Origin: Patescibacteria group bacterium | Lineage (GTDB): Bacteria; Patescibacteriota; Patescibacteriia; 2-01-FULL-39-33 | DNA length: 64,000 nt | Reading direction: 5' to 3' | Assembly: GCA_041649655.1 (NCBI GenBank) | Contig: JBAZMO010000001.1 | Coordinates: 173 to 64,172, forward strand | Part shown: positions 10,407-60,955 of the stretch, piece after piece | Numbering within the stretch: position 1 is the first letter of the stretch | How the letters are laid out: the number at the start of each line of letters is the position of its first letter | Made by a program: the position numbers and the translations under genes | Notes under the pieces: model-generated | Seen by the model: the letters and a program-made list of their open reading frames with translations, nothing else | What the model was told of the DNA's origin: nothing | The model's database searches: none

Positions 10407-13337
10407 ATGTCAACAGCCAAATCCAATTCGAGCGCCGGGACAGAAAAAAAATGGATCAACCCGATTCCTGAAAGAGAAAAGGAGATTCAGAAGTTTTGGG
10501 AAGATCAGAAAATTTTTGAGAAATCCTTGCAGCAAACTAAAAATGGCCAGGCCTATTCTTTTTACGATGGTCCGCCTTTTGCCACTGGCCTGCCGCATTA
10601 CGGTCACATGGTCGCCAGTTTGATGAAAGATGTCGTACCGAGATTTTGGACGATGCGCGGGCGTTATGTCGAGCGGCGTTGGGGCTGGGATTGTCATGGT
10701 TTGCCGATTGAGAATATCGTGGAAAAGGAATTGGGTTTCAAAAGCAAGAAAGACATCGAGGATTACGGCGTGGCCAGGTTCAATGAATATTGCCGCAGCA
10801 AGGTTTTGGGTTATGCTGGGGATTGGAAAAAGACTATTGCGCGTTTCGGCCGCTGGGCGGATATGGAGCATCCCTACCAGACCATGGATTTGGATTATAT
10901 GGAAAGCATCTGGTGGGTGTTCAAGGAACTGTATGATCGCGGCTTAGTGTACGAGGGCTATAAATCCATGCATGTCTGCCCCAGATGCGAGACCACTTTA
11001 AGCCAGCAGGAAGTCAGCGAGGGCTATAAAGATATCAAGGACTTATCAGTGATCGCTAAATTCGAACTAACCGATGAGCCGGGAACTTATGTCTTGGCTT
11101 GGACGACGACGCCCTGGACTTTGCCGGGCAATGTGGCTTTGGCGGTGGGGGAAGAGATTGAATATATTGAAGTAAGAATCATGAATCATGAATTGCGGAC
11201 TAATGAATTATGTATTTTAGCTAAGGCGCGGCTGGTGGATATTATGGGCGATAAAGAGTATGAAATAGTTAAAGAATTAACAGGAAAAGAATTAGTCGGC
11301 AAGAAATATAAGCCGTTGTTTCCGTATTACGAAAGCGATGAGGCCAAGGCTAAAATTCCTAACGCTGAAAACTTGTATACTATTGTAAGCGCTGATTTCG
11401 TGACGACTGAAGATGGCACTGGTGTGGTGCATATCGCTCCGGCTTATGGCGAAGAAGACATGCAGCTTGGCCGGGAAAAGGACTTGGCTTTCATCCAAAA
11501 TGTCACCTTAAGCGGCAATTTCAAAGATGAGGTCGTTGATTTCGCCGGCCTGAATGTTAAGCCGATAGGGGAGACCCAAAAGACAGATGTGGAAATCATT
11601 AAGTACTTGGCTGATAAGGGATTATTGTTTGCTAAAGAAAAATATGAGCATAGTTATCCGCATTGCTGGCGTTGCGATACTCCGTTGATTAATTACGCTA
11701 CCAGTTCGTGGTTTGTTAAAGTCACTGATATCAAATCGAAGGCCTTAAAATACGCTCAGGATATCAATTGGTCGCCGGATCATATTAAAGAAGGCCGTTT
11801 TGGCAAATGGCTGGAAGGCGCGCGCGATTGGTCGATTTCCCGCCAGCGTTTCTGGGCGTCAGTCATTCCGATTTGGAAATGCGAGTGCGGAGAAATGAAG
11901 GTTTACGGTTCAGCGGCTGAGTTGGAAAAGGACAGTGGTGAAAAAATCACTGATTTGCACAAGCATTTTGTCGATCAGATTGAAGTGCCATGTTCTTGCG
12001 GCCGGAAAATGAAACGGATTCCCGATGTTTTGGATACTTGGTTTGATTCCGGTTCCATGCCCTATGCCCAGCAGCATTATCCGTTTGAAAATAAGGAAAA
12101 ATTCGAGGCCGGTTTTCCGGCGGAATTCATTGCCGAGGGTATTGATCAGACCCGCGCTTGGTTTTATTATCTGCAGGTGATTGCGGCGGCGATCAAACAA
12201 GGCGCGGCCTTCAAGAATGCGATTGTCAACGGCATTGTCGTAGCTGGCGACGGCAAGAAGATGTCCAAAAAATTAGGCAATTATACCGAGCCGGAAGTTA
12301 TCATGGATCAATACGGCGCTGATGCCCTGCGTTATTATCTTTTGACTTCGCCGGTGATGCAGGCGGAGAATCTGAGCTTTGACGATAACGGCGTCAAAGA
12401 AGCGATGCAGAAAGTTGTCATGCTGTTGAATAATATTTTGAGCTTTTATAAATTGTATGAGATTGACGGCGATCAAACGGCCGGCGTCTCGGAAAATATT
12501 TTGGATCAATGGCTGTCGGCCAAGCTTAACGCTCTAGTCAGGGATGTGACCGCCGCCATGGAGGCCTATGATTTGCCGCGCGCCACTCGGCCATTGGCGG
12601 AATTTATCGATGAATTTTCCACTTGGTGGCTGCGGCGCAGCCGCGATCGTTTCAAATCGGACGACGAGAAAGATAAACAGCAGGCGTTAAGGACTTTCAG
12701 ACGTGTTTTAATCGAATTGTCGAAAGTAATGGCGCCGTTCACGCCGTTTGTCGCCGAATATGTCTATAAAGAAATCGGCGGAGAGTTAGAGTCGGTGCAT
12801 TTGGAAAAATGGCCGGCGGCCGGAGAAATCGACGGGAAAATTTTAGAGCAAATGGATCAGGCGAGAAAAATCGTTGAATTGGGGCTGGCGAAGCGCGCCG
12901 AAGCCGGAATCAAGATCAGGCAGCCTCTTGCTTCGCTCAAATTTCCAATTTCCAATTTCCAATTTCCAAAAGAATCGGAACAATATTATGATTTGATTCG
13001 TGATGAGATTAATGTTAAAGACGTGCTCGGAGAAGAAATTGAAAATCTTGAACTCGATTTTGAATTAACCGAAGGATTGAAGCAGGAAGGCGCTTTACGC
13101 GAATTGGTCAGGACGATCAACGGCCAACGCAAAGAGGCGGGGCTGACAATTAAGGATGAGATTAAAATCAGCTGGCAAAGCGACGGCGAAATTGTCAGAA
13201 ACGTCCTGGCTGATCATAATTTTTCAGAAGAATTAAAAAAGTCAACCCTCACCAGTGAATTATTAGAAGCGGAAAATGACGCCAAGCCGGTTGATATCAA
13301 CGGCGAGAAAGTTAAAATTAAAATAAAGAAAATCTGA
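10407..13337 (+). CDS. ileS: isoleucyl-tRNA synthetase
   Basis: PPFATGLPHYGH HIGH motif, KMSKKLGN KMSKS motif, CP1 editing domain, zinc ribbon CPRCETTL. Carries the in-frame repeat at 12939..12969. Confidence 0.95.
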   Translation: MSTAKSNSSAGTEKKWINPIPEREKEIQKFWEDQKIFEKSLQQTKNGQAYSFYDGPPFATGLPHYGHMVASLMKDVVPRFWTMRGRYVERRWGWDCHGLPIENIVEKELGFKSKKDIEDYGVARFNEYCRSKVLGYAGDWKKTIARFGRWADMEHPYQTMDLDYMESIWWVFKELYDRGLVYEGYKSMHVCPRCETTLSQQEVSEGYKDIKDLSVIAKFELTDEPGTYVLAWTTTPWTLPGNVALAVGEEIEYIEVRIMNHELRTNELCILAKARLVDIMGDKEYEIVKELTGKELVGKKYKPLFPYYESDEAKAKIPNAENLYTIVSADFVTTEDGTGVVHIAPAYGEEDMQLGREKDLAFIQNVTLSGNFKDEVVDFAGLNVKPIGETQKTDVEIIKYLADKGLLFAKEKYEHSYPHCWRCDTPLINYATSSWFVKVTDIKSKALKYAQDINWSPDHIKEGRFGKWLEGARDWSISRQRFWASVIPIWKCECGEMKVYGSAAELEKDSGEKITDLHKHFVDQIEVPCSCGRKMKRIPDVLDTWFDSGSMPYAQQHYPFENKEKFEAGFPAEFIAEGIDQTRAWFYYLQVIAAAIKQGAAFKNAIVNGIVVAGDGKKMSKKLGNYTEPEVIMDQYGADALRYYLLTSPVMQAENLSFDDNGVKEAMQKVVMLLNNILSFYKLYEIDGDQTAGVSENILDQWLSAKLNALVRDVTAAMEAYDLPRATRPLAEFIDEFSTWWLRRSRDRFKSDDEKDKQQALRTFRRVLIELSKVMAPFTPFVAEYVYKEIGGELESVHLEKWPAAGEIDGKILEQMDQARKIVELGLAKRAEAGIKIRQPLASLKFPISNFQFPKESEQYYDLIRDEINVKDVLGEEIENLELDFELTEGLKQEGALRELVRTINGQRKEAGLTIKDEIKISWQSDGEIVRNVLADHNFSEELKKSTLTSELLEAENDAKPVDINGEKVKIKIKKI
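12939..12969 (+). repeat. (AATTTCC)n heptamer tandem repeat inside ileS, encoding FPISNFQFP
   Basis: AAATTTCCAATTTCCAATTTCCAATTTCCAA; the same 31 nt occurs in leuS at 24654..24684. Confidence 0.8.
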
Positions 13338-23953: not shown

Positions 23954-26857
23954 ATGACATACAAGGAGTTCTTGAATGATGGAGGAGAGAAGAAGTGGCA
24001 GGATCAATGGCTGAACACAAAAATTGATCGAGCCGATGACTTCAGTTCCAAGCCCAAGAAATATGTGCTGGATATGTTCCCGTATCCGTCCGGCGCGGGC
24101 TTGCATGTCGGCCATCCGGAGGGTTATGCGGCGACTGATATTTATTCTCGTTATTGGCGGCTGAAGGGATTCAATGTCCTGCATCCGATGGGCTGGGACG
24201 CTTTCGGTTTGCCGGCGGAAAATTACGCCATCAAAACCGGCACCCAGCCGCAATTGACCACTGATAATAATGTCGCCACTTTTAAACGCCAAATTCAGTC
24301 GCTTGGCTTTTCTTATGATTGGGATCGGGAAATCAATACCACTGATCCGAAATATTATAAATGGACGCAATGGATTTTTTTGCAATTGTTCAAAAAAGGC
24401 CTGGCTTATGAGGCGACCGTGCCGATTAATTTTTGTCCGTCATGTTTGACTGGTTTGGCTAATGAAGAAGTCAAAGACGGCAAATGCGATCGCTGCGGCA
24501 CGTCGGTCGAGAAGAAGGATTTGCGCCAATGGATGTTGAAGATTACCGCTTATGCCGACAGGTTGTTGGAAGGGGTTGATAAGCTGGATTGGCCGGAGTC
24601 GATCAAGGCCCTGCAGCGGAATTGGATCGGCCGATCGGAGGGAGCAACGGTGAAATTTCCAATTTCCAATTTCCAATTTCCAATTGAGGTTTATACTACT
24701 CGCCCCGACACTCTTTTTGGCGCGACCTATATGGTTTTGTCCCCTGAACATAATCTTTTGGATGAATTGAAACCTAGAATTACTAATTGGGAAGAGGTTC
24801 AGGATTATATCGCTAAAGCCAAGAATAAATCCGATCTGGAACGGACAGAACTTAATAAGGATAAGACCGGCGTTGAGCTGAAGGGCATTAAGGCGATTAA
24901 TCCGGTCAACGGCCAGGAGATCCCGATCTGGATTTCCGATTATGTGCTGGCGTCTTACGGCACCGGCGCGATCATGGCGGTGCCAGCTCATGATGAGCGT
25001 GATTTTGAATTCGCGAAGAAGTTCGGTTTGCCGATCATCGAGGTGATTATTCCGGAAAGGATTGATAAAAGGAATCCGCCCGTAGCCGGCAAAGAAAAGG
25101 TTGAGAGAAAAAATGTCCAAGTCATTGTTCGCAATCCTCGGACGGGAAAAATTCTTTGCCTTCATTCCCATAAATACGGCTGGGTCACTTTTCCAATGGG
25201 CGGCGTCGGGACTGATGAAGATCTGTTGGCTGCCGCTAAGCGCGAGGTGATAGAAGAAACCGGTTATCGGAATTTAATTAATGGCGAAGTGCTCGGCGGG
25301 CAAGTTCGCGCTGAATATTTCGCTAATCATAAGGATGTTAATCGAGTTTCTTTCACTAACTTAGTTCGATTTGATTTGGCTGATGAAGAACAGATCGGAA
25401 TTTCTGAGGAGGAAAAAATAGCCGAGAATGAAATCCTTTGGAAAAATCCGGAAGAATTAACGTTGGATTTCATGGTTCATGCGGAAATGGATGTTTGGCT
25501 GGAACGGATTAAAAAAGGCGATATCGCTTATACGGACGTCGATAATGGTGTCATGATCAATTCGGAATTTTTGAACGGCCTTGTGCCGGCTGAAGCAATC
25601 GGCAAGATGATCGACTGGCTGGAAGAAAAAGGTGTCGGCCATAAAGCGATCAATTACAAATTGCGCGATTGGGTTTTTTCTCGCCAAAGATATTGGGGCG
25701 AACCGATCCCGCTGGTGCACTGCGAGAAGTGCGGTCCGCCAGCTGGCGGATGTGCCATTCCGCTAAATGAAAAGGATTTGCCATTAACACTGCCCCAAGT
25801 GGAAAAATACGAGCCGACCGGCACCGGCGAATCGCCGCTCGCGACAATCGATGAGTGGGTCAATACGATTTGCCCGAAATGCGGCGGTCCGGCTAAGCGC
25901 GAGACCAACACAATGCCGCAATGGGCAGGCAGTTCTTGGTATTGGCTCAGGTATATTGATCCGCATAATGATGAGGCCTTTGCCGATCAGGATAAATTGA
26001 AATACTGGCTGCCGGTCGATTTGTATTTGGGCGGAGCTGAGCATGCGGTTTTGCATTTGCTTTATGCTCGTTTTTGGAATATGGTTTTGTTTGATCTGGG
26101 CGTTGTGCCGCAAGAAGAGCCGTTTGCTAAGTTGATTAATCAGGGTTTGATTCTGGGCGAAGACGGCGAGAAGATGTCGAAGTCGCGCGGCAATGTGGTC
26201 AATCCCGATGAAATCGTCAAGGACTTCGGCGCCGACACTTTCCGTTTATATGAGATGTTTATGGGGCCATTGGAAGCGATGAAGCCCTGGAGCACCAAGA
26301 ATATTCTGGGCGTCCATCGGTTTTTGAATAGGGTTTGGGAGTTAGTTCCCCTCCTTTCCAGGGAGGGGCTAGGGGAGGTTTCGGAAGGGAATGACAAGGC
26401 AGAATTAGAAATTTTATTTAATAAGACCATTAAAAAAGTCGGCGAGGATATTGAGGCGATGAGTTATAATACGGCTATTTCAGCGCTGATGGTTCTGGTC
26501 AATAAATTCCAGTCGGCTGGTGGTATTAATCAAGAGCAATTAGAAAAATTTTTAATCATCCTGTCGCCGTTCGCGCCGCATTTGGCAGAAGAATTGTGGG
26601 GAAAGTTAGGCCAGGTGGAAAGTATTTTTAAAGAAAAGTGGCCGGAGTATGATGCAAGCAAAGTCATTGACACGGAAATTGAAATGCCGGTGCAGATCAA
26701 TGGCAAAGTACGGGCTAAATTGAAATTGCCGGCCAATATTAGTGAAACTGAGGCGAAAGCAGCTGCTCTTAGTGATGAGAATGTCAAAAAATATCTGGTT
26801 GGCGAACCAAAGAAGATTATTTTCATTAAAGGCAAGTTGATCAGTATCGTGGTTTAG
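23954..26857 (+). CDS. leuS: leucyl-tRNA synthetase carrying an internal Nudix hydrolase domain
   Basis: [20 protein letters not shown] motif, CP1 editing domain, KMSKSRGN, C-terminal KGKLISIVV. About 130 extra aa between the post-editing [19 protein letters not shown] block and [12 protein letters not shown] contain a full Nudix fold. Confidence 0.95.
24654..24684 (+). repeat. (AATTTCC)n heptamer tandem repeat inside leuS, encoding FPISNFQFP
   Basis: AAATTTCCAATTTCCAATTTCCAATTTCCAA, identical to the ileS copy. Confidence 0.8.
25115..25525 (+). other. Nudix hydrolase domain embedded in LeuRS (Nudix box at about 25198..25266)
   Basis: [51 protein letters not shown] is a perfect GX5EX7REUXEEXGU Nudix box, with the preceding beta-strands typical of the fold. 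E. coli LeuRS has only about 45 aa in the corresponding segment. Confidence 0.75.
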
Positions 26858-31454: not shown

Positions 31455-31476
31455 CATGATTCATGATTCATGATTC
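31455..31476 (+). repeat. (CATGATT)3 heptamer tandem repeat
   Basis: CATGATTCATGATTCATGATTC; related TGAATCATGA motifs recur at 38874..38903. Confidence 0.7.
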
Positions 31477-38806: not shown

Positions 38807-38923
38807 TTTTTAGGTTTTTAAATTTGCTCCGAAGCTGGCGACAGGTTCGGAGAAATGTGAAAAACTATTGATTGAATCATGAATTTTGAATTATGAATCA
38901 TGATTTAGAATTTGGAATTAATT

Positions 38924-38947
38924 ATTCATAATTCATAATTCATAATT
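38924..38947 (+). repeat. (ATTCATA)3.5 heptamer tandem repeat in the yqeY promoter region
   Basis: ATTCATAATTCATAATTCATAATTC, preceded by two TGAATCATGA motifs at 38874..38883 and 38894..38903. Confidence 0.7.
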
Positions 38948-38954
38948 CCGCATT

Positions 38955-39503: not shown

Positions 39504-42500
39504 ATGATTAAGAGACAAATCGTTTCTAATCAAAGGTCGTTTTTCAAAAACGCTAGAGCCGCTACTATCGGTTCCTTAGCGTTTTTTATTGCTTTATTTT
39601 TAATGCCGGCTTTGGCTTGGGCGGCCGGCGATATTCCGACATTATCCGGAGTAGTCGAGGGGACTGGTTTGCCCATGGTTAATCTGACGGTCTTTTTGCT
39701 GGCGATCTTGCGGATCTTTTTCGGCTTATTGGGAGTGCTCGCGATCGCGCTTTTGATGTATGGCGGCTTCATTTGGATGACCGCGGCCGGCGAGCCGGAT
39801 AAAGTCACCAAAGCCAAACAAATCATCTATAATACGATTATCGGCTTGATCGTGATCTTTTCCGCTTTTGCCATTACCTCTTTTTTAATGGCTTGGCTGA
39901 ACGGCTTGGGTGGCGGCGGCGATGGCGGCGGCACGACTCGGATTCCCGGCGGCAATGGCGATTGGGGCCGTTCGGCGATTGGGGCCGGACCGATTCAAAG
40001 CGTTTATCCGGCTCCTAATGCGGTCAATGTCCCGATCAATACCAGGATTGCTGTCACTTTTAAAGTTAATATCGATCCTTCCAGTATCTGCGAATTAGTC
40101 GCTGGCGAAACTTATTGCAATGGCGGATTGATGAAGAATGTCACGATTTGCGCGATTAGTTCAACCAGTTCCGATTGCCTGCCGGATCCGGAATTCAACG
40201 CTAATGTTTATGCCGATACCAAGGTCTACCAAGCGACTTCCAGCGATCAAAGGACTTTCATTTTTTCAACCAATAATTATTTAGGCCTTGATGACAATCA
40301 AGTCAGGATTTTCAAGGTTCATTTGGGCGCCGACATAGAAGCGGCTGCTACCAATGAATCGGTTTTTGCTAATCTTCGTTATCCTGATTATGCCTGGGCT
40401 TTCAAGACCAACGGCGTTCTTGATTTCTCGCCGCCTGAGGTGGCTCGAATGGAAATTTATCCCAATCCGGATAATACTCCCGACACTTACAATGTCGGCG
40501 CGCAGTCGACTGTTGGCTCGGCTTCAATTACCGCCTCAATCACCCCTCGACTGGAAACCCCACCGACGATCCAAGGCCGTCCGTTTACTGGTACGCCGTT
40601 GGTTGATATATCTCTAACTGAGGATCTTGATAATGATCCAATTATTCCAGATGATTATTTGAAATTAGGCACCTCTGGTTTTAGTGTTACTAGCACTAAT
40701 TCTGTAAAAAAAATATCATTTCAGATTAGTCCGGCTGGCGAATATATTGAATTTGATATTTCACCGGATGCGGCCAGTATCTTAGGCGTTACTTTTTCTA
40801 GAACAGGAGTTTGCGCCAATAAGGAACGTTGCTTGTTAGTAGATGATAATAAGCGTGTGACGTTGACCGGCTCCGGATTAACAATCGCTTCAACTGGCAA
40901 TTTTTCCGAGGCGCGCGGTTCAAAGTGGTCATTTACCGTCTCTCCCGCTGTTAATGGCGATGAAGTGATTTTGGCTAACGGTACTAATAAGATTAATTTT
41001 ATTTTTGCGGATACATCTTTGCCTGCTAAAATTACTAAGCGTTCAGTGGCGAGCGATGGCCGGACGATAGTCAACACTGATTATTTCACTGTTAAGTCGG
41101 CTGCGACTTCGACGGCCGGCTATCTGAAGGGCCTTAATGACGCCCTGATTGCTCACGCTGGCAATTTTGTAACATCAACTGTTGCTACTAATAAAATAAT
41201 CGTCACGCCGAAAGCGGCTGGCGCTAATTCTTTAAGCTTAACGACTAATAGCTCGGCGCTGGCTATCGACGGCAATTTATCAGGAGAAGCCAGGGTTACC
41301 GCTCGAACGCCTTTGCCGCCCGGTTCAAAGGGCGATGCCTACAATAATTCGGTTTTCCGGGTGTCTTTTACCGAGGCAATCAGCCCGATCAATATTGAAC
41401 AGCATGTCATAATCAAGATTAACGGAGATATTGTCACGGCTTCCACCACTTTGACTAATCAATACCGCACGCTGGAATTTTTGGGCACTAAGCCGTGCGG
41501 CGTTAACAGTTGCGGCAAACAGATGTATTGCTGGCTGGATCCCAACAGCGCCGATGTTTCTTTGCCGGCGAGTATAGAAATCGTGGCGGCCGGCTTGAAG
41601 ACCTGTGTCGGGACGAATGATGATTGGTGCGTTAAATTCGGCGGCACTTGCCAAGTCGGAGTTGATGGTGGCCGTTGCCAATTAACCAATGGCTTGCATT
41701 ATCCTCAGGCCGATGTTTCAGCTGATGGCGTTACCGACATGGCTAATAATTCTTTCAACGGCAATTTTAATAAATCAGAGAATAATAAAGGCGTCATGGT
41801 CGGCAATGCTGAAGGCCGATCGGGAACCGGCGCTGGCAGATCTGGCCAGCCGGCTTATAACGCCAATAGCATTACAACACCAATACACTTCGACGGCTTA
41901 GTCACTTCTTTTGCCAACGACGGCGATGCCAATGGTGATAACTTTTCTTGGTCATTCTTCGTTTCCACTCAGATTGATCGGGCCGCTCCGTTGATTGCCA
42001 AAATCTTACCAACCGGCGACAGTTCCCATGGTATCGGCCTTGATCAGACCTTCCGCGATCCGGTCACTTTAGTTTTTAATGGCTTGATGCGTCTGGCGAC
42101 TCTTCAGCCGGGCTGGGGTTATGGCGAGCGCGAGGCCGACCCCCGTTGGCATACCAGGTATTTGATTTTGAAAACGATTACGGCCGGAGCCAATCCGATC
42201 GGCTATTGGGTTAGCGCGCTCAACTTGGATGAGGGTGATTTTTCGACCGAGGCCGGCCGAGGCGATGGCCTGGCTGATTATACTGAAGCCCGCATCAATC
42301 ACAGCGCTTACGATCAGGCGGTTAATTACGGTCCGCTCGCCGGTAATGGTATTGAGTCAATCACTCAGAATTGCCTTTTGCCCGGTAATGGTCCGATAGA
42401 TGCCGGTGCTACCGGCGATAATAAGTGCGTTTATAATTCTGATGGTTCTGGCAATACTTCCGGTTGTGTCACTGATCTGGATATTGACTCGAATAGACGC

Positions 42501-42710
42501 GTTACCTCGACTAATCCGTCTTCTTATGGCTATTTGCTTTGCAAAGATATTGACGGAGCGGTTTTGTGCGCCAGTGACAAAAAATGCAAGGCCCATGTTG
42601 CTACTTCCACAAATTCTGTTTTGAATGGCAGTTGGATTATTACCAAGGATAAATCCATCACTGATTTTACTACCGGAGAAACCGGCTGCTGCTTTGGCAA
42701 GTGTTTTTAA
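39504..42710 (+). CDS. giant secreted/surface protein 1 (1068 aa) with conserved N-terminal helical-hairpin membrane module
   Basis: Signal peptide then two TM helices around the invariant MYGGFIWMTAAGEPDKVTKAK. Gly-rich linker. Long Ser/Thr/Asn/Gly-rich beta-type extracellular region. C-terminal Cys cluster CCFGKCF. Confidence 0.7.
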   Translation: MIKRQIVSNQRSFFKNARAATIGSLAFFIALFLMPALAWAAGDIPTLSGVVEGTGLPMVNLTVFLLAILRIFFGLLGVLAIALLMYGGFIWMTAAGEPDKVTKAKQIIYNTIIGLIVIFSAFAITSFLMAWLNGLGGGGDGGGTTRIPGGNGDWGRSAIGAGPIQSVYPAPNAVNVPINTRIAVTFKVNIDPSSICELVAGETYCNGGLMKNVTICAISSTSSDCLPDPEFNANVYADTKVYQATSSDQRTFIFSTNNYLGLDDNQVRIFKVHLGADIEAAATNESVFANLRYPDYAWAFKTNGVLDFSPPEVARMEIYPNPDNTPDTYNVGAQSTVGSASITASITPRLETPPTIQGRPFTGTPLVDISLTEDLDNDPIIPDDYLKLGTSGFSVTSTNSVKKISFQISPAGEYIEFDISPDAASILGVTFSRTGVCANKERCLLVDDNKRVTLTGSGLTIASTGNFSEARGSKWSFTVSPAVNGDEVILANGTNKINFIFADTSLPAKITKRSVASDGRTIVNTDYFTVKSAATSTAGYLKGLNDALIAHAGNFVTSTVATNKIIVTPKAAGANSLSLTTNSSALAIDGNLSGEARVTARTPLPPGSKGDAYNNSVFRVSFTEAISPINIEQHVIIKINGDIVTASTTLTNQYRTLEFLGTKPCGVNSCGKQMYCWLDPNSADVSLPASIEIVAAGLKTCVGTNDDWCVKFGGTCQVGVDGGRCQLTNGLHYPQADVSADGVTDMANNSFNGNFNKSENNKGVMVGNAEGRSGTGAGRSGQPAYNANSITTPIHFDGLVTSFANDGDANGDNFSWSFFVSTQIDRAAPLIAKILPTGDSSHGIGLDQTFRDPVTLVFNGLMRLATLQPGWGYGEREADPRWHTRYLILKTITAGANPIGYWVSALNLDEGDFSTEAGRGDGLADYTEARINHSAYDQAVNYGPLAGNGIESITQNCLLPGNGPIDAGATGDNKCVYNSDGSGNTSGCVTDLDIDSNRRVTSTNPSSYGYLLCKDIDGAVLCASDKKCKAHVATSTNSVLNGSWIITKDKSITDFTTGETGCCFGKCF

Positions 42711-42744
42711 GTTATACAATACAAAAAGAAATTTTAATTCTTCA

Positions 42745-45700
42745 ATGTTAGTTCGAACAAAAAAAACACTTTTAGTCATTCTTGTAATTCTGGCGGCAGC
42801 GACTTTAGCGTTGCCGGCGGCGGTTTTGGCTGCGGGCGAAGTCCCGTCGATCGGCTTATTCGGCAGTATTTTCGGCACAGCGACTTTGGCGCAGATCATT
42901 ATTCGGATCATTCAGCTGTTTATGGCGCTTCTCGGCGTCATTGTTGTGGTATTTTTGATGTATGGCGGCTTTATTTGGATGACGGCCTCAGGCGATCCGG
43001 ACAAAGTCACCAAGGCCAAGCGTATCATCTTGCAGGCGATTATCGGCTTGGTTATAATTTTTTCGGCTTTTGCCATCTCCGCTTTCATTTTTGATCGTTT
43101 CGGCCCGCCGGACGGCGGTTCTCCGACTGAGCCCTGCGAAACTGTCGGAGAAACCGACAATTGTTCGGTCGGCGGCTGCACCGGTTTGCGGACTTGTCTG
43201 GAAGGCAATATCTGGGGTCCATGCCAATTCGATCCTAATTGCGATCCGATCAATCCTCCTTATAACCTAATTCCGCCGGTCATCACTTATATTGACCCGG
43301 CTTGGGACGTTAATGGCGATACTGATCCGAGCAATATCACGGAGGCCTCTACGGCTGATGACATTTCCAATGGTGCTCCGGGCAATGCCATCAGTATTTT
43401 CGGCCGTTATTTCGGCCAAGTCAGGGGCAAGGTTTATTTTGTCAGAAATAGTGACAATATTAGAACCGAGGCCGACATTGCCGATTGTTTCGGCGCTTGG
43501 ACTAGCAATCAGATCATTGTCGTGGTGCCGGACGGTTTGGATCAAATGGATATCAGCTCGGAAACGGCCATCGTCAATGCCAGTCCGCTCAGGAATTACA
43601 ATGTAATTGTCGAGAAAAATTCGACCGGGGCGACGTCTTTGGTCTCCAATGACTGGGGGTTTCAAGTCAATAAAATCGAACGGCCGGGGATTTGTTCTAT
43701 GGTTCCCAAGAGTGGCGCCTATCCGGCGACGACGACGATTGTCGGTTGGAGATTTCCCAGCGCTTCGCCGCAGAATGTTTTGTGGTCGCTGTCGCCTTAT
43801 CATGCAACATCAAGCGCTAGTGCTTGGACCGTCAGTTCGACGATCGATACCGTGCCGCAGGATTTAAGCGGCCGCGCTCTGGTAAATATTTTTAATGGCG
43901 TTGTCAAGAGTAATTCATATTTGTTCATGGTTTCTCGAGGCCGATTGGATGATCCTTGCGGCTATGATAATCGTTCATGCGACGAGGATATTAATACTTG
44001 CGGCCAAGATGAGGGCGTAGTTTTGGCCTGCCAATTCTGTTCTGATGATCCGGCTAATGATGATCATTATCAAGCCGGCTGTGATTTGTCGAAGAATTGC
44101 ACTTGCCAAATCAACTCGAAAGACGCCTGCGTTTATAATTCTGATCAGTTGCAAAATGATAAGCAGGCCTGCTTTATTGGCGGTTGCGCCGGCTTTAAAT
44201 ATTGCACTGATAGAGGTGTTTGGAGTAGCACTTGTGTGCCATCAGCAGTCGATTGCGTGCCATATCTGGGCAATCGTTCCGGCATCGCCTCATTTTCTTG
44301 GGCTTTTAACGCTTTGAAACGGCCGATAGCCGGCATGAGCTGTAAGTCGGATATTTGGAGCGATGATACTTGCGATCTTAACGGCTGTTTTGACGCCAAT
44401 CTCGGCTGTGATACTTCTCAAACGACTGAAGAGTGGGTTGAGATTTATAATCCGACCGATAGTGCGATTGATATCAGTGATTTAAGAATCAGCTATATTG
44501 ATGATTATTTCGGCACTGAAGAAAAAACCTTTTTTTCTTTTTCTAATCCGACTGGCAAATTTATCGGCGGCAAGAGTTACATGGCCCTAAGGAACACCGG
44601 AGCCCGTTTGCCGAATATTTCTGGAAAAATAATTTTAAATAATAATTTCAGCCAAGTTGATATTGTTGAGTATGGCAATAATGATTTATCGGCGGCTTTT
44701 TCGCCCGCTTCTTTTGGTCGGAAAATAGACGGTTTGGATACCGGCAACGCGTCTGATTTTGTTTATTTTCCTAATTCGAGCGGCGATTTTCCTAACAATA
44801 CGGCCAGTTCGACGATCGGTGATCATTTGGTTATAAATGAGGTTTCTTTGGCTCATGATGCCTGTACTTGCGTGCCGAAGTCGCAATTATGCGCCCCTGG
44901 CGAAGTTGATGCCCAGACCTGCGATCCGGTCGGGCAGTGCCGGCAGGCGAGGACCTGTTCGGCCGACGGCCATTGGGGCGCTTGCGTTCAAAGCGATCCC
45001 AATTGCATTCCTTATCCGCTTGTGCCGGCCTCGACTATCGCTTCTTACAGCTGGTCGTTCGGCGCGAATGCCGGGCTCTCTGGCGCCGGTCCGATGGTGG
45101 TTAAGTCGTGCGACGGTTCGGTCGATTGCAGCCGAAACAGTTTGCCCAGCCCTTCGCCCTGGGAAGAGTGGACGCCGGAAAATTCCAATGTGGAAAATCA
45201 AGCCAGTATCGATGCCTGTTTGAATGCCACGATTTTTGCGCGTTTTACACAAACGATGGATCAAGCGACTTTGAATACGGAGAATATTAAATTGTATAAA
45301 TATAATAATAGTAACGCAACTTGGGAAGATAATCGCTTAATTGATGATATTGAATCATTACCATTAAGTGACAGTGGTGTAGATTCTTTCAATTTAAAGC
45401 TTAATCAGAATTTAATTTCAAGTACCACTTATCGTGTTTATTTAAGCAAGTCGATTCGTGATGGATTGGGGCGCAATTTGATTGATACTCCTAATGGTCC
45501 GCGGCAGGAATTATGCGGCGGTGTCGGCGATGGCAATGGCGTCTGCTGGAGTTTTAAAACTCGCGCAGCCAGCGATCCTAATAAGATGTGCGAAGTCGGC
45601 TGCGTCAATTGCGGTCCGGACAAGTACTTCAATCGTTATTACGGCCAAAAGAAACAGCACGCCGCTTATCCGATCAGCATTGATAATTCTTGCATTGTGC

Positions 45701-48700
45701 TGGATGCTACGAATTATGAATGGGACTGGACGGTCGAGCAGCAAACCACTGGTAACAGTAATAATCGCGGTTGGGAAATCATGCGGACTATGGCGAGCGC
45801 CTATTCATGGCTGTTGGATCCAATCAGCCAGTTGGCTCTGACGGCAACTGATGGCATTTTACATCAGATAAGCGGCACAGTCATATCTGGCAAAGCGACG
45901 ACGACGGCGCAGTTGGAAACACGCTGGCGCACTAATTCCAATTATTCCGCTTGGTTCGAAGGCGATGATTTTGATTTTTTTGCAGTTAGGTCTAAGGAGG
46001 CCGCGACTCAAAATTCGGGAATCTGCCGGGCGCATAACAATTTTACCGATCCAGTGGTGATTGAAAGCCAATACTGCACCAAGAGTGATACTGAGGGTGA
46101 TGCTGACAGCGATAATTGGTCCAAGCAGGTCTTGCAAAGCCCGAGTCCCTGGAAGGGGCAAACTGATGCCTGCACTAATGGCGTTATCTTCGTGCTGTTT
46201 TCCCGTAATATGATGAATGGAAGTTTATTGAACGGCGGCCTAATTAAAAATTTTGAAATTTATAAGTGCGACAATGCCGCAGCCGCTACTTCTTCTGATT
46301 TCAGCAGTTATAATGATGATTGCGAACTTCAGCCGGCTTGGCAGGCTAAAGTTTTCAATTATACTCATCAAAATATCACCTTGCAGGAGTTAATGGCCGC
46401 TGCTGACAGCGTCCAAGGATCTACAACTCCGGAGGGAATCCGGATTTATCCTCCGAATAAATTAGCGTCCAACACTTGGTATAAAGTCCTTATTAGGGGC
46501 GGCGAGAACGGGGTGCGCGGAGGAAATTCTGATTCCAATGAGCAATCCGAGGGTGTTTTGCAAGTCCCCAATCCCAATGCCAGGATAATCAACGGTGCGG
46601 AAACTTGGTATTATTGGTATTTCAAGACAGGCGCCGGCGATTGCCCGATCGATCAGGTGGCGGTCTTGCCGCAAATCAAGTTTATGCCGGTAGTCGGAGA
46701 GTCCCAGGATTATTTAGCCGACCCGTATGCTGCCAATTGCAACCATCTTAATTCTAATAATTATGTTTGGCAGTGGGATTCTTTGATCAATCCCTTTGTC
46801 GACCGTTGTCCGAACGGCAATAATTCGGGCGATTATGTCGCTTCTATTCTTTCGACCACTTCAGACGAAACGATAGCGACTTCCAGAAGCGAGGGTAATA
46901 CTAAGATCACGGCCGCCGCCGAGCAGGGCGAGTGCGAAGCTAATAAATGGGGCGCCGGCGAATTGCAGGTCGGTTATGGCGGATTCAAGGTGTCTTCTTA
47001 TGACAACACCAATTGCTTGAACACTGATATTAATATCAATTTTTCTCAAGAGGCCAAAAGCGATACTCTTAAGAATAATATTGAGCTTTACCGATGCGGT
47101 AATTCTGATTGCCGTTTTGATGATTTACAGAACTTGCAGATTACTATAAGAAATCCGCAAGGCCTTTATGAAGATCCTATCAAACCAGATCCTTTTTATT
47201 CCAATTCGGTTTATCTGGTGCCGAATATCAATCTGACTCCGGGCGCAACTTATCGAGTGGTGGTTAAGGGAGGTGATACCGGCGTTAAGTCATTTGCTAA
47301 CTCCTCATTATTGGATTTGAATTATAATTCTGAGGCCAAAGCCGGTGGTGAAGTTTGCGATCCGGGGCTTTATCCTTGGCGGTCGGGCGATCCGTTTGTC
47401 GGATTATGCAGTAATGCCTGCAAGCTCATCGGCAACTTATGCGGCACGCCACTGGCGGAATGCCAGCCGGCTGATTTATTGTGCGATGACAACTGCCACA
47501 AAGTCGGCAATAGCAATACTTCGGCCAGTTGCGGTAATAATAAGATCGATCCCGGCGAGCAATGCGACGACGGCAATACCAGAGATGGCGATAGTTGCAG
47601 CTCGTTATGCTTGCTCGAAGGCAGCAACACCAGATACGGCTCGCTATGTGGCAACGGCAAGATAGAAAAAGGCGAGCAATGCGACGACGGCAATATCGTA
47701 GATAATGATGGCTGCAGTTCCGAATGTTTGCTGGGGGTAGAGGGCGTCACTACTAACATTTTATTTAATACCAGTTTTGAAGAAGACGACATACGTACTG
47801 GTGCGTTGAAAAATTGGTCTACATATTCACAAAAGCATTCTAAAGTGGAAGTTACATCAGTTGAGTATCAATCAGGAGCTCGAAGCGTTTTAATATTGCA
47901 GGAATCTAATCAAGTATTTCCCGGTACTTGTACGGAGGCGATTTGTAATGACTTGAGTCCAGCCCTCCCAACTAATATCGGTTGCACTTGGTTGAGTGCT
48001 ACCAATCAGTGTAGTTTTAATCAGCAGGATAGTGCGCATCTTGGCAACTCCAATCCCATTTATAATTTTGGCAACACTCTATATGCACCAAATAACCATG
48101 CGGTGGTGTGGGGTGCTCTTTCTTATAATGTATCTTCGCCCGGCTTTGTGGTAGGTCAGAAGTATACTGTTAAATTTTGGTACAAGGGAATAGTTGATAA
48201 GAATAGCACTACTAGTTTGGTTTTTGGTTATAACCCTGGCAATCTTAGTCAATGCAACTCGACTAGCACATTAAATTTGAAAGATGACCCAAGTAATCCT
48301 GGCAATGAAATTTGTAAAACTGGTAAATTTTGTTCTGACGATCCTAGTCATTGCTGTTTTCAGGCGCCTTACCAAACTAAATGTTATAGCGGCATATCTA
48401 AAACAGCGATTAATCCCGGTACTTATGATGATTGGCAGCCACATACGACCGAATTTATTTACACTTCGGAATTAGCCAGCTTGCGAGATAGTGCCGGCAG
48501 ATTATTAAATGTGATAGCCCTAGTTATTCCTAATGCGCCAACAACTGATAGTGGTACCAGGCTTTATATTGATGATTTTTCGGTCGAGCAAGTCGGTTCT
48601 GTCTCTGACGCGCCGATTTGCGGCAATGGCAAGATTGAAGCCGGTGAGCAATGCGATGATGGCGCTGATAATGCGGTTGATAGTTCGTCTCTTAATCGTT

Positions 48701-51700
48701 GCACCTCCAATTGTCTTTTAAGCGGCGCGAATGCTACGAGCACAGGCGGCACTTGCGGTGACCGCAAATTACAGAATGGCCAATTTGACAGTTACTCTTG
48801 GACTTTCAATCTTGATGACAATGTCAGAGTTTGCCAAGCTGTCAGAGCCGATCTCAATCCTTGCCCTAATGGTGTTTGGTCGGTCAGCGCTGATGCCAGT
48901 GTCAGCAGTTTTGATATCTTGTTTTATCGTGGGTTTGAAGGCAATAATAAACCTGCGTCTAATTGCATTTCTGACGCAGAGATGCGGCAATACGGCTTTT
49001 GGCGGCGGATGTTTAATGAATTAGCCAAGATAGTTAAAAGTTTCTTCGGTTTCCATTCGGCTTTGGCGGCCGATTGGTGGTGTACGATGAATAATTCTAA
49101 TGACAGTAAATTTTCAGCTGAAGATTTGCAAAAAATGAGCTTGGGTAATTTCAAGCGTGATATTTTGCTGGACGGGGTGTCGACTGAGATCATCGGTTAT
49201 ACTGATGATAATGACGGTTATAAAGTTAATTTTATCCGTAAAAATAACTATCAGCCGAACACCCAGTATAAGGCGGTGGTGAATTATGTCCGCAATGGCG
49301 TCAGCAATATCCGGACTTCCGATGTGACGACTTACTCCTCAAGCTGCCGAATGGACAGCGTTAAATTCGATGTCTGGCCGCGCGGCGCGGCTAAGAATTC
49401 GGATGCGTTTTTCTGCGCTTCTGATCCGGTTGCCGGCAAGTTGGACGAGTGCGGCCGTTTCAGCGATGATCCTTATGACGACGATATGTCGGCGGCTTGG
49501 ACCATGAATCAACTGGATAACGGCTATAACTTGAACAGCAATGGCGATGCTCAAACCGCTATTAATAATCCCAATTACAAGCCGGGCAATAATCATCTTT
49601 ATCGCGTCTGGCCGCTTGATCAAGACGGGCATGTTTTGCGCGGCATTAATTTTGAGCAGAATGTGGCCAATGTCGGCGCTCTGGTCAATCAGTCGGCTTT
49701 AGGCAGCACTGGTTATGCCGGCGATTTCTGGCTGACTTCGGGGCCAACCCAGGGCCGATCTCTTTTTAACGTCAAGATCAGTGATTTGAATGATGCCGGC
49801 GCCGGCAGCGTCAGCGGCAGTTTGCCGATTTATACTTTTTTCTGCAAGAATCCCTGGCCGTCCCCCAATGATTTCCCGTTTGTTGATAGTAACGCAAATT
49901 GTCCAACTGGCACTTGTATTAATACTAATTTCGCCGCTTACTATTGCCGCGATGCCGGACTGGACAGCACGACGGCTGATGATTTGCCGTCGATCGGCAG
50001 GATAAATTCCGGGGTGGCGGTCATCGGCTCTGAAGCTTGCCCAACCACTGATCCGTGCGACAATAAGATTAAGGAGTTCTTATTCAGCGGTTCGGCTGCC
50101 GGCATAGCGACCTCCAGCAATACCATCGGCTTGAGGATTTACAACAATAATAATCATTATTCGCCGACTTTGTGGTATCAATCGCGATTCAATCCCGCTT
50201 CCCAAAGCAATTTGTCGAAATTAAGCGTCGACGGCTATAGCGCCAGCCGAGAAGGCCGGACGACTTATATTAATGCGGCTGATTTTAAAGATGGCCAGGA
50301 CAAGGTTTATTCCGACATATTTATTTTGTCTTATGACCAGAACGCCGGCGAAGCGGTTAAGAATATTTATGACCAACTCTTAGCCAACTGGTTTTTCAAT
50401 GCCGGCTCCTTGTCAGTCGGCGGCTTGGAATATTATGAAGCCCTTGGTTTTTGCAGTGAAGGCAGCCAGGCCGATCAAGATAACAGATGCTTCAGCGATG
50501 TCGATTGCTTGAAACGCGGCGCCGGTTATTGTAAGTCGGAAAAAGCCAAGATCACCCGCGATACTCAGCGCTTGGCTGATGTCCAGGATATTTACAAGGA
50601 GTTGGCTGGTTATTATGGCCGCTTACGCTGTTCTAATGATTTCAATCGTGTTTGCCGGTCCAATGCCGACTGTTACGGCGGCGGAGCTTGCGGTAATTTC
50701 TATCCTAATTTGCGCGCCGGCACTTACCTGACCGGCAAAACCTTCAGTGTTTGGCCGAGCTGGCAGGATAACCTGGGCAAGGACTTGGGAACCGCTTTGC
50801 CAGTTGATCCGATTAATAAATTGTGGGCTTGGTATGGTAAGTCAGTTGATTGCTCTAATCCTTATAATCCCGTCACTTGTTGGGACCAGACCGGCAAAAA
50901 AATGGAGTCGAATCTTGATTGGAATTCTGCCGTCTATGCTTATTACGGCACTAAAGCCGGCACTTCGACTAAGATTTATATCAAGGGTGAAAAGGACTCG
51001 ACCGGTTCGATTTGGCATGAAGATTGGGTTTCGTTGGCGACTTGGGGTTATAACCCTTTCAGTGGTTATGTAGTTGGTGGTTTTCATTCAATAGTCAGCG
51101 ACAGTTGCGGCAATAATGTTTGTGATAATTCTGCCGGTGAGACCTGCTCTAGTTGTCCTTTGGATTGTGCTTGCTTAATTGGCAAATCTTGCCAAAAAAT
51201 TTCTAGTGTTTGGCAATGCGCGACATCGACATTACCGATTGCTGCATCCGCGACCTGCGGCAATGGGATTATAAATCATAGTATTAATTATATGACTGGA
51301 GCGAATATCGGAGAAGAGTGTGATTTTATTAATGGCGTGCCGAATTGTCCTAGTCCAAATGAGCTATTTGGGAATCCTAATATTATAAAACTTGTAACAT
51401 CTACTGTTCAAGGCGCTCTTTGCTGCACTGACCAATGCAAATTATCTGATTGGTATAAATCAGTTAATTCAAATCCCAGATGTGGCGACGGCTTAAGGAC
51501 TGACCAGGAAGAATGTGATTGTGGAACGGTTGGTTATACGCCAGCAAAATATAATCCCTTTGTCTGTAATAATCTAAATTATAATCCGATAACTACATAT
51601 TTAGAACCGCCAGCTAGGCCGGTTGATAAGCCATATTGCGACACTAATTGTTTTCTTCACATTAATACTGATTACAGGTTTTGCGGTGATGGTTTAAAGA

Positions 51701-60829: not shown

Positions 60830-60955
60830 TCAAGAGTAAAATAATTTTTAATTTTGTAATTTTTAAATAATGTCTAAATGTTTTAATGTTTAAAAATTAA
60901 GAAATTAAAAAATTATTTATAAAATTAAAAATTAAAAATTCTTAAAAAAAACCAT

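Follow-up and report, generated by a model that had tools for sequence, protein, structure and literature searches.

Perfect heptanucleotide arrays in the ileS and leuS genes of a Patescibacteria genome and their relation to known 7-nt repeats

Known 7-nt repeats and the arrays in the window

Heptanucleotide long simple sequence repeats (LSSRs) are over-represented in prokaryotes, and polymerase slippage over a contact of ~7 nt has been proposed as the cause (Mrázek, Guo & Shah, 2007, as summarized in PMC4679880 and PMC4692102). Here we analyze a stretch of 64,000 nucleotides (hereafter the window) from the genome of a Patescibacteria group bacterium (contig JBAZMO010000001.1), in which ileS and leuS, the genes for isoleucine–tRNA ligase and leucine–tRNA ligase, share an identical 31-nt sequence built from the unit AATTTCC. 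Like the prokaryotic LSSRs, these arrays consist of perfect tandem 7-nt units, with period 7 over-represented and a sporadic occurrence across phyla. LSSRs are mostly intergenic, however, and units that are not a multiple of 3 are reported to be avoided in genes. In contrast, about two thirds of the AATTTCC arrays among the matches listed from other genomes are in frame within essential genes, with 65 of 125 as sense copies inside an open reading frame (ORF), loop-coding sites recur, and there is evidence for length-neutral homogenization. Except for the intergenic habit, the window arrays have the defining features of heptamer simple sequence repeats. To our knowledge, the bacterial excess of 7-nt tandem repeats, known since 2007, has never been explained. 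Literature searches found no paper on the AATTTCC repeat or the peptides it encodes, and none on heptamer arrays within genes of Patescibacteria.

Genome-specific heptamers have also been described, including the cyanobacterial STRR (Calothrix/Nostoc) and TAACTGA in Beggiatoaceae, cyanobacteria, and Bacteroidetes (PMC4679880), as well as GGGAATC and GGGGA(T/C)T in Xanthomonas and Nostoc, with a four-unit preference in Xanthomonas (PMC4692102). These families resemble the arrays studied here in having 7-nt units in short arrays with about four units preferred, in the presence of the same unit in distant phyla without a known vehicle, and in a few copies within ORFs at the protein periphery. They differ in having one dominant unit per genome, located upstream of or between genes, and TAACTGA contains stop codons in the forward orientation. 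Here, many units coexist, and AATTTCC is open in six frames and mostly coding.

A 7-nt unit in a coding sequence is also found in neuO of E. coli K1, in which an (AAGACTC)n variable number tandem repeat ranges from 3 to 53 units, with a high slip rate and many out-of-frame alleles, and acts as a true phase switch (PMC13001214). In both cases, three units correspond to a 7-aa repeat and the gene is in frame only at the right length. However, neuO is a non-essential phage cargo gene, whereas the arrays here have four units, are fixed in length among relatives, and reside in essential genes. Rickettsia palindromic elements are reportedly selfish DNA inserted in frame in protein-coding genes, a description that is said to go back to Ogata et al. 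in 2000; the elements are also mentioned in PMC10969869. They are similar in that repetitive DNA, probably functionless, is tolerated in frame at the surfaces of essential proteins including aminoacyl-tRNA synthetases, but they are palindromic, span 100–150 bp, and add length, whereas the window arrays are direct repeats of 30 nt, and the one in leuS brings no net insertion. The marks of insertion by such elements or by miniature inverted-repeat transposable elements (an inverted repeat, a palindrome, a target-site duplication, and a clean insertion relative to close homologs) are all absent from the window arrays.

With moderate confidence, we regard the two 31-mers as separate members of a large class of short, perfect heptanucleotide microsatellites (~21–35 nt, 3–5 units) that are made and homogenized by 7-nt misalignment and filtered by loop tolerance. 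Such arrays are abundant in this Patescibacteria lineage (candidate phyla radiation, CPR; Buchananbacteria-like), in many other uncultured bacteria, and in phages. The arrays themselves are probably without function. The feature is real, and it is of more interest as a handle on the accumulation of 7-nt repeats in bacteria than in itself. The known cases lie between genes, where constraint is slight. In essential, well-aligned genes, the reading frame, protein structure, and orthology serve as built-in rulers, and these show a loop replaced without a change in length, orthologous arrays changing unit-wide, and a homogenized unit without silent sites. Such arrays open the question "why seven?" to testing, through comparative genomics of Patescibacteria and with polymerase assays.

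The window contains exactly two copies of the 31-mer AAATTTCCAATTTCCAATTTCCAATTTCCAA, at 12939–12969 in ileS and at 24653–24683 in leuS; no third copy is present in the window at up to 3 mismatches, and none of 100 dinucleotide shuffles contains a match. An earlier note, made from the sequence alone, had reported this identity, with correct coordinates for ileS and coordinates for leuS (24654–24684) that were one base off. The ileS array, A+(AATTTCC)4+AA on the plus strand, has a periodic run of 30 nt at 12940–12969 (4.3 perfect units according to Tandem Repeats Finder). The leuS array, A+(AATTTCC)4+AATT at 24653–24685 on the plus strand, has a periodic run of 32 nt at 24654–24685 (4.6 perfect units by the same program). 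Both copies encode the same 10-residue peptide. As the note stated, they are in frame, with the same codon phase, a slip by one unit would frameshift the host gene, and the repeat is a feature of the DNA rather than ordinary coding sequence. The shared 31 nt include a non-periodic leading A. Beyond the repeat edges, the identity ends (5 of 9 upstream bases match), the flanks are unrelated and have no inverted repeat, and AATTTCC has no self-complementarity beyond AATT. A −1 frameshift site was considered and rejected: although A_AAU_UUC looks like a slippery heptamer, its phase is wrong, with AAA UUU in the zero frame.

Array sites in leuS and ileS

The leuS gene (23954–26857, plus strand; 967 aa, 100% identical to P0001) encodes a protein with the Pfam domains tRNA-synt_1, tRNA-synt_1_2, Anticodon_1, and NUDIX. 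Its single heptamer array encodes residues K234 to 244 of LeuRS, at the tip of a β-hairpin leading into the CP1 editing domain, and occupies the variable segment between RNWIGRSEG and VYTTRPDT, as noted earlier. In the AlphaFold model (mean pLDDT 88.8, ~92 locally), this region consists of a strand (227–237), a turn (238–242), and a second strand (243–248). The array-bearing segment aligns without gaps to the LeuRS of Thermus thermophilus (1H3N/2BYT), which reads GAEILFPVEGKEVRIPVFTTRPDT. The closest array-free relatives (P0002–P0005, 80–81% identical) have the same 17-residue loop, AEVDFKISNSEEQIRVY. The loop DNA differs from that of these relatives at 18 of ~30 bases, and the one shared serine is encoded by AGT there and by TCC in the window. 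Given the different serine codons and the equal loop length, the leuS segment was therefore overwritten, neither inserted nor point-mutated.

Other array-bearing LeuRS homologs cover a wide range of divergence. In P0006, with 90% identity across the aligned region, the array differs by two changes, a synonymous one inside and ATT>ATC at the edge. In L069 and L100, whose LeuRS are only 53–56% identical to that of the window, the same 32–33 nt are found at the same codons. The array length is identical in the window, P0006, L069, and L100. The LeuRS of P0093 reads KFQISNFKFQI, which is the exact product of (AATTTCA)n, i.e., C>A applied to every AATTTCC unit. The array-type loops have common flanking residues (..V/L-K-F ... 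I-E/N-V-F/Y), which points to an old allele more than to many separate origins. When metagenomes were scanned with the leuS junction for strain or copy-number variants, the P0006 contig was the sole match.

The ileS gene (10407–13337, plus strand; 976 aa, 100% identical over its full length to P0121) encodes a protein with the Pfam domains tRNA-synt_1, Anticodon_1, and DUF5915, and hosts two heptamer arrays. The AATTTCC array lies after KIRQPLASL, as the note described, and encodes K845-FPISNFQFP-854 of IleRS, at the end of a β-strand and in the surface loop before a helix. The structure model (pLDDT 76–90) has a strand at 841–847, a 10-residue coil at 848–857, and a helix at 858–868; the alignment of this region to the structure 8C8U has a 2-residue gap. 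The nearest IleRS relatives (77–79% identical) have an unrelated segment of 20 residues at this site. The comparison with orthologs that the note had proposed for detecting an insertion thus gives no net insertion for leuS, and for ileS a segment that differs from array-free relatives by 5 aa rather than by the length of an array. The gene for the IleRS of P0129 (locus L120; 75% identical) has the same array as the window, with 33 identical nt and no difference in length.

This ileS site is a hotspot for heptamer arrays. Among 120 relatives surveyed for array-encodable peptides (at least 9 aa and exactly 7-periodic), 12 of the 15 peptides found are located at this site, and no such peptide was found in shuffled proteins. 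Seven units occur there, namely AATTTCC, AATTTTC, AATTACG, AAATTCC, AAAGTTC, AATTTCG, and AATTGCG. The DNA of two hotspot relatives contains near-perfect arrays in the register and length of the window array. The window and L125 differ by T>A at offsets 4, 11, 18, and 25, with an identical substitution in each of the four units. As read from these sequences, differences that recur every 7 nt are the signature of either concerted evolution or wholesale re-writing in register. None of the four explanations offered in the note fits well in the form given. Its mobile in-frame element is disfavored by the absence of net insertion in leuS, the unshared flanks, and the other heptamers at the same ileS site in relatives, and only a weak form of the idea, suggested by the phase-defined array boundaries, retains some likelihood. 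What the note had named as a refutation, occurrence in both enzymes across the lineage, is observed in part.

The same locus of L125 has further features of its own. The IleRS gene of P0155 contains three heptamer arrays at 12577–13111 of L125, with the units AAATTAC, AAAATTC, and AAATTCC. A pair of genes resembling a diversity-generating retroelement (bAvd and a reverse transcriptase) is located 1.5 kb downstream.

The conservation of arrays at the DNA level was measured as the fraction of residues conserved between two genes for which the codon is also unchanged, with P as the probability that all array codons are kept. For ileS, codons outside the array are kept at 54% between the window and P0129, and array codons at 11/11 (P ~1e-3). 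For leuS, the corresponding values are 37% and 10/11 for L069 (P ~2e-5), 40% and 11/11 for L100 (P ~4e-5), and 73% and 9/11 for P0006 (P 0.03, which is ordinary). A homogenized 7-nt unit has no silent sites because each position is read in turn as codon position 1, 2, and 3, and array DNA therefore stays identical across deep divergence. In our reading, if units are kept alike, selection at the protein level would hold the unit, and single-unit variants such as the one in P0006 would be transient.

These comparisons also bear on the idea that FPISNFQFP is a selected protein module with DNA identity as a by-product, which the note had listed and which we reject as highly improbable. The peptide fits the hairpin pattern of LeuRS relatives (F-x-I-x-N-...-I-x-V) and is modelled confidently in LeuRS. 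However, the array codons are invariant where synonymous change is saturated, the same DNA is found in three frames, as antisense GNWKLEI, and in non-coding positions, and the loops of the closest relatives are unrelated in sequence.

We also reject, at a probability lower still, an assembly or sequencing artefact or a phase-variable contingency locus. Nearly all matches come from metagenome-assembled genomes (MAGs), and 7-nt coding units do serve phase variation in neuO (PMC13001214). Against an artefact, which the note had also raised, a sequencing read is longer than the arrays of 30–32 nt, homologs match both full-length proteins collinearly on either side of the repeat, and the same arrays recur in independent assemblies from ENA, JGI, and NCBI. 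Against phase variation, the host genes are essential and single-copy rather than dispensable surface or modification genes, and array length does not vary among the relatives that have an array, whereas neuO varies from 3 to 53 units with two thirds of its alleles out of frame.

Period-7 excess, spread of AATTTCC, and origin of the arrays

Perfect repeats of period 7 are in large excess in these genomes. In an unselected sample of 150 kb, composed of the window and four loci fetched via array-free or unrelated relatives, 11 perfect period-7 runs of at least 18 nt were observed compared with 0.05 expected under a second-order Markov model (~200-fold), whereas periods 4–6 and 8–11 are near expectation. 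In the 904 kb around the genome matches listed, 184 period-7 arrays of at least 3 units were found, compared with 0, 3, 10, and 1 arrays for periods 5, 6, 8, and 9, respectively. Among these 184 arrays, 58 have units other than AATTTCC, of 36 different kinds, and the 8-kb neighborhoods of the listed matches contain only 5 extra AATTTCC arrays. Among viral contigs, (AATTTCC)3 was found in 11, and four other heptamers were found in 6, 56, 39, and 14; the typical length is 21–35 nt for every unit scanned. The possibility that AATTTCC is uniquely abundant is therefore ruled out, since other heptamers are as common or commoner in viral contigs. The possibility of one dominant unit per genome was also rejected, as neighboring arrays mostly have other units and L125 has five different units within 23 kb. 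The claim of the note that the shared 31-mer is not expected by chance holds against random sequence but is much weaker given this period-7 enrichment and the wide recurrence of the unit.

These counts also bear on whether ectopic gene conversion, acting on the copies in ileS and leuS alone or on every copy in the genome, created them or keeps them identical. We consider this explanation, which the note had included for the two genes, quite improbable. The copies are identical over 31 nt including the non-periodic leading A, units are shared within the window, and RecA-type exchange needs at least about 31 bp. However, the identity stops at the repeat edge, the neighborhoods mostly contain other units, and a first copy cannot arise by conversion. 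Moreover, other genomes have each array at the corresponding site (ileS in P0129; leuS in P0006, L069, and L100), so that each is older than this genome and conversion is not needed. A special relationship between ileS and leuS was rejected for the same reason. The sharing of one unit by the two genes is best read as reflecting the few AT-rich heptamers that pass the filter, not an interaction of the genes.

The properties of the unit illustrate this filter. Only two of the 30 distinct A2T3C2 heptamers, AATTTCC and TCCATAT, are free of stop codons in all six frames, and AATTTCC is tolerated anywhere in a gene because it has no stop in any of them. One heptapeptide takes three 7-nt units, and every frame specifies the same cyclic peptide, NFQFPIS, since 7 is not divisible by 3. 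The alternation of bulky hydrophobic residues with Asn, Ser, Pro, and Gln in this peptide suits a short β-hairpin or loop.

The search of other genomes that the note had proposed was run on one genome per bacterial and archaeal species, and it found (AATTTCC)3 in at least 119 contigs. Among the matches listed, about half of the contigs are labelled Patescibacteria by title count, in many classes, and the remainder belong to more than 10 other phyla, with labels including Nitrospirota, Bacteroidota, Gammaproteobacteria, Planctomycetota, and Acidobacteriota. The 125 arrays in these matches comprise 65 that lie well inside a long ORF in the sense orientation and are read as a rotation of NFQFPIS, with all three frames used, 15 that are ORF-internal but antisense and read GNWKLEI, 22 at ORF edges, and 23 in apparently non-coding DNA. 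In total, 102 of these 125 are within or at the edge of long ORFs, which is not a predominantly intergenic habit, and sense arrays outnumber antisense arrays (77 vs. 25). The host proteins are ordinary housekeeping enzymes, including MnmA, UvrD, GT4 glycosyltransferases, MetRS, DprA, pyruvate kinase, Mur ligases, Fmt, KsgA, and TsaD. LeuRS hosts AATTTCC arrays at two different sites across genomes. The second site, after WYYLAYIMRG in the catalytic-core region before WLPVD, is occupied by an array read as ISNFQFPIS in four MAGs of Saccharibacteria/Parcubacteria (L016, L053, L101, and L107). The array copies of these MAGs differ by one point change, and the array at this site is therefore inherited vertically.

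Two further observations concern arrays in other genomes. Inverted pairs of (AATTTCC)n arrays ~30 nt apart, forming a large potential hairpin, are present in a Gemmatimonadota MAG and a Planctomycetes MAG (L032 ~1810–1893 and L109 ~363–444). A role as terminators was considered, as several arrays follow hairpin-like sequence, but it was rejected because most such stretches are coding on translation (e.g., the second LeuRS site).

A functional nucleic-acid signal would provide another explanation for this distribution, although we consider it very improbable. The array could be a protein-binding site in DNA or mRNA, a G-free patch for Rho loading, or a weak two-tetrad G-quadruplex on the GGAAATT strand. 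In line with such a signal, conservation of the DNA exceeds what the protein requires, the sense strand is free of G, the arrays listed are biased toward the sense strand, and the preference for about four units matches the supposed G-quadruplex requirement of the Xanthomonas and Nostoc heptamers (PMC4692102). However, the same sites in relatives hold AATTACG, AAAGTTC, and AATTTTC, some with G and some without CC or GG tracts, and close relatives lack the repeat. Moreover, the arrays occur in both orientations, in every frame, in unrelated genes, and in more than 10 phyla.

For the origin of the arrays, we infer 7-nt misalignment as the mechanism, and the periodic substitutions are consistent with homogenization of this kind. 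During replication or repair, the nascent strand would be misaligned by one 7-nt unit. If the misalignment lasts, units would be gained or lost; if it is transient and followed by realignment, one unit would be copied onto its neighbor with no change in length. Such length-neutral copying could convert a quasi-periodic loop-coding sequence into a perfect array and keep it homogeneous by concerted evolution. Selection would act as a filter, and the survivors would be length changes in multiples of 3 nt, units without stop codons, and peptides tolerated in surface loops.

Several points weigh against this reading. Of the 76 AATTTCC arrays of 28 nt or longer among the matches listed, 49 (64%) have their left end exactly at AATTTCC, and array lengths peak at 27 and 30–31 nt with few of 14–20 nt; neither the fixed left boundary nor the peaked lengths are predicted by plain slippage. 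Length-neutral conversion is deduced from end states, with no intermediate step observed. The closest pair, the window and P0006, already has 2 changes in 11 array codons, and homogenization, if it exists, must therefore be slow or intermittent. Long-term maintenance is also indistinguishable from recurrent new formation at these codons. In addition, unit sharing within the window (AATTTCC twice and the GAATCAT family two or three times among 6–7 arrays) is above that of a random-seed model.

Some of these points would be accommodated by a written or mobile sequence, in which a trans-acting activity inserts or patches a preformed oligonucleotide of ~30 nt, (AATTTCC)4AA(T), at many sites, and events that are in frame and compatible with a loop survive. 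The candidates would be a template-copying reverse transcriptase or primase-like enzyme, or an abundant single-stranded oligonucleotide that anneals at the replication fork. We regard this explanation as unlikely. It agrees with the defined left boundary, with a right end after AA or AAT in 44 of the same 76 arrays (58%), with the narrow, non-geometric lengths, and with the occurrence of AATTTCC arrays in many phyla and in phage contigs. Also in its favor are the presence of identical arrays at corresponding leuS codons despite only 53–61% protein identity, and the length-neutral replacement expected of oligonucleotide-style patching. However, flanks are not shared and target-site duplications are absent, and AATTTCC is not unusually common among the heptamers of viral contigs. 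One template is also insufficient for the dozens of other heptamers whose arrays span that length range in these genomes, different units are present in the same register at orthologous sites, and there is no identified candidate enzyme. Slightly more doubtful still is the proposition that heptamer arrays of ~30 nt with a fixed 5' phase are written, or written over existing sequence, at many sites across phyla by a sequence-specific process distinct from ordinary slippage; a templated polymerase, a reverse transcriptase, or oligonucleotide annealing would be the candidates. If true, the writing process would represent a new minimal self-propagating DNA inside essential genes, giving loop-compatible peptides in every frame.

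Other arrays and neighboring features

The window contains six heptamer arrays in total, including the two AATTTCC arrays; the coordinates given here are for the plus strand. The second array of ileS, (GAATCAT)2.6 at 11176–11193, is located in the editing-domain region and is read (R)IMNHE(L). The other three are intergenic. The (CATGATT)3.1 array at 31455–31476 belongs to the reverse-complement family of GAATCAT, and a degenerate heptamer cluster at 38872–38948 (TGAATCA, TGAATTT, and others) ends in a perfect (ATTCATA)3.6 array at 38924–38948. The last is (AAAATTA)2.9 at 60921–60940. No tRNA genes and no Rfam families at the gathering threshold were found in the window (1–64000).

The leuS loop also carries other kinds of repetitive sequence in relatives. 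Longer in-frame peptides are present in the same LeuRS loop (equivalent to 24650–24690 of the window), including VIPAKAGIQ...GMT, VIASEAKQS...PRDD, and LPAGRQG, in P0009, P0013, P0017, P0021, P0029, P0031–P0034, P0042, P0062, P0073, P0101, and P0106. From their sequences, these peptides look like translated GC-rich hairpin (palindromic) repeat elements, and the LeuRS loop thus seems generally prone to taking up repetitive DNA in frame, much as seen with Rickettsia palindromic elements. Heptamer arrays and hairpin-derived loop peptides create spurious "shared motifs" between unrelated proteins, and masking them is advisable when CPR genomes are annotated or searched for homologs.

Aminoacyl-tRNA synthetases with embedded enzyme domains may merit separate study. 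A NUDIX hydrolase domain (PF00293), modelled as β-rich, is inserted in the LeuRS of the window at 25046–25454 (residues ~365–500). This insert is common to many Patescibacteria relatives of LeuRS, and other relatives have α/β-hydrolase inserts (PF00561/PF06821), while many IleRS relatives have a histidine-phosphatase insert (PF00300). The NUDIX insert is also present in P0056, a LeuRS 56% identical to that of the window and labelled "Candidatus Nanoarchaeia archaeon" at NCBI, which is probably a mis-binned or mislabelled Patescibacteria contig. Finally, a single ORF of 3288 aa is located at 42625–52491 of the window, preceded by an ORF of 1068 aa (39504–42710), and giant proteins with LVIVD/fn3-like repeats are found near synthetase genes in relatives.

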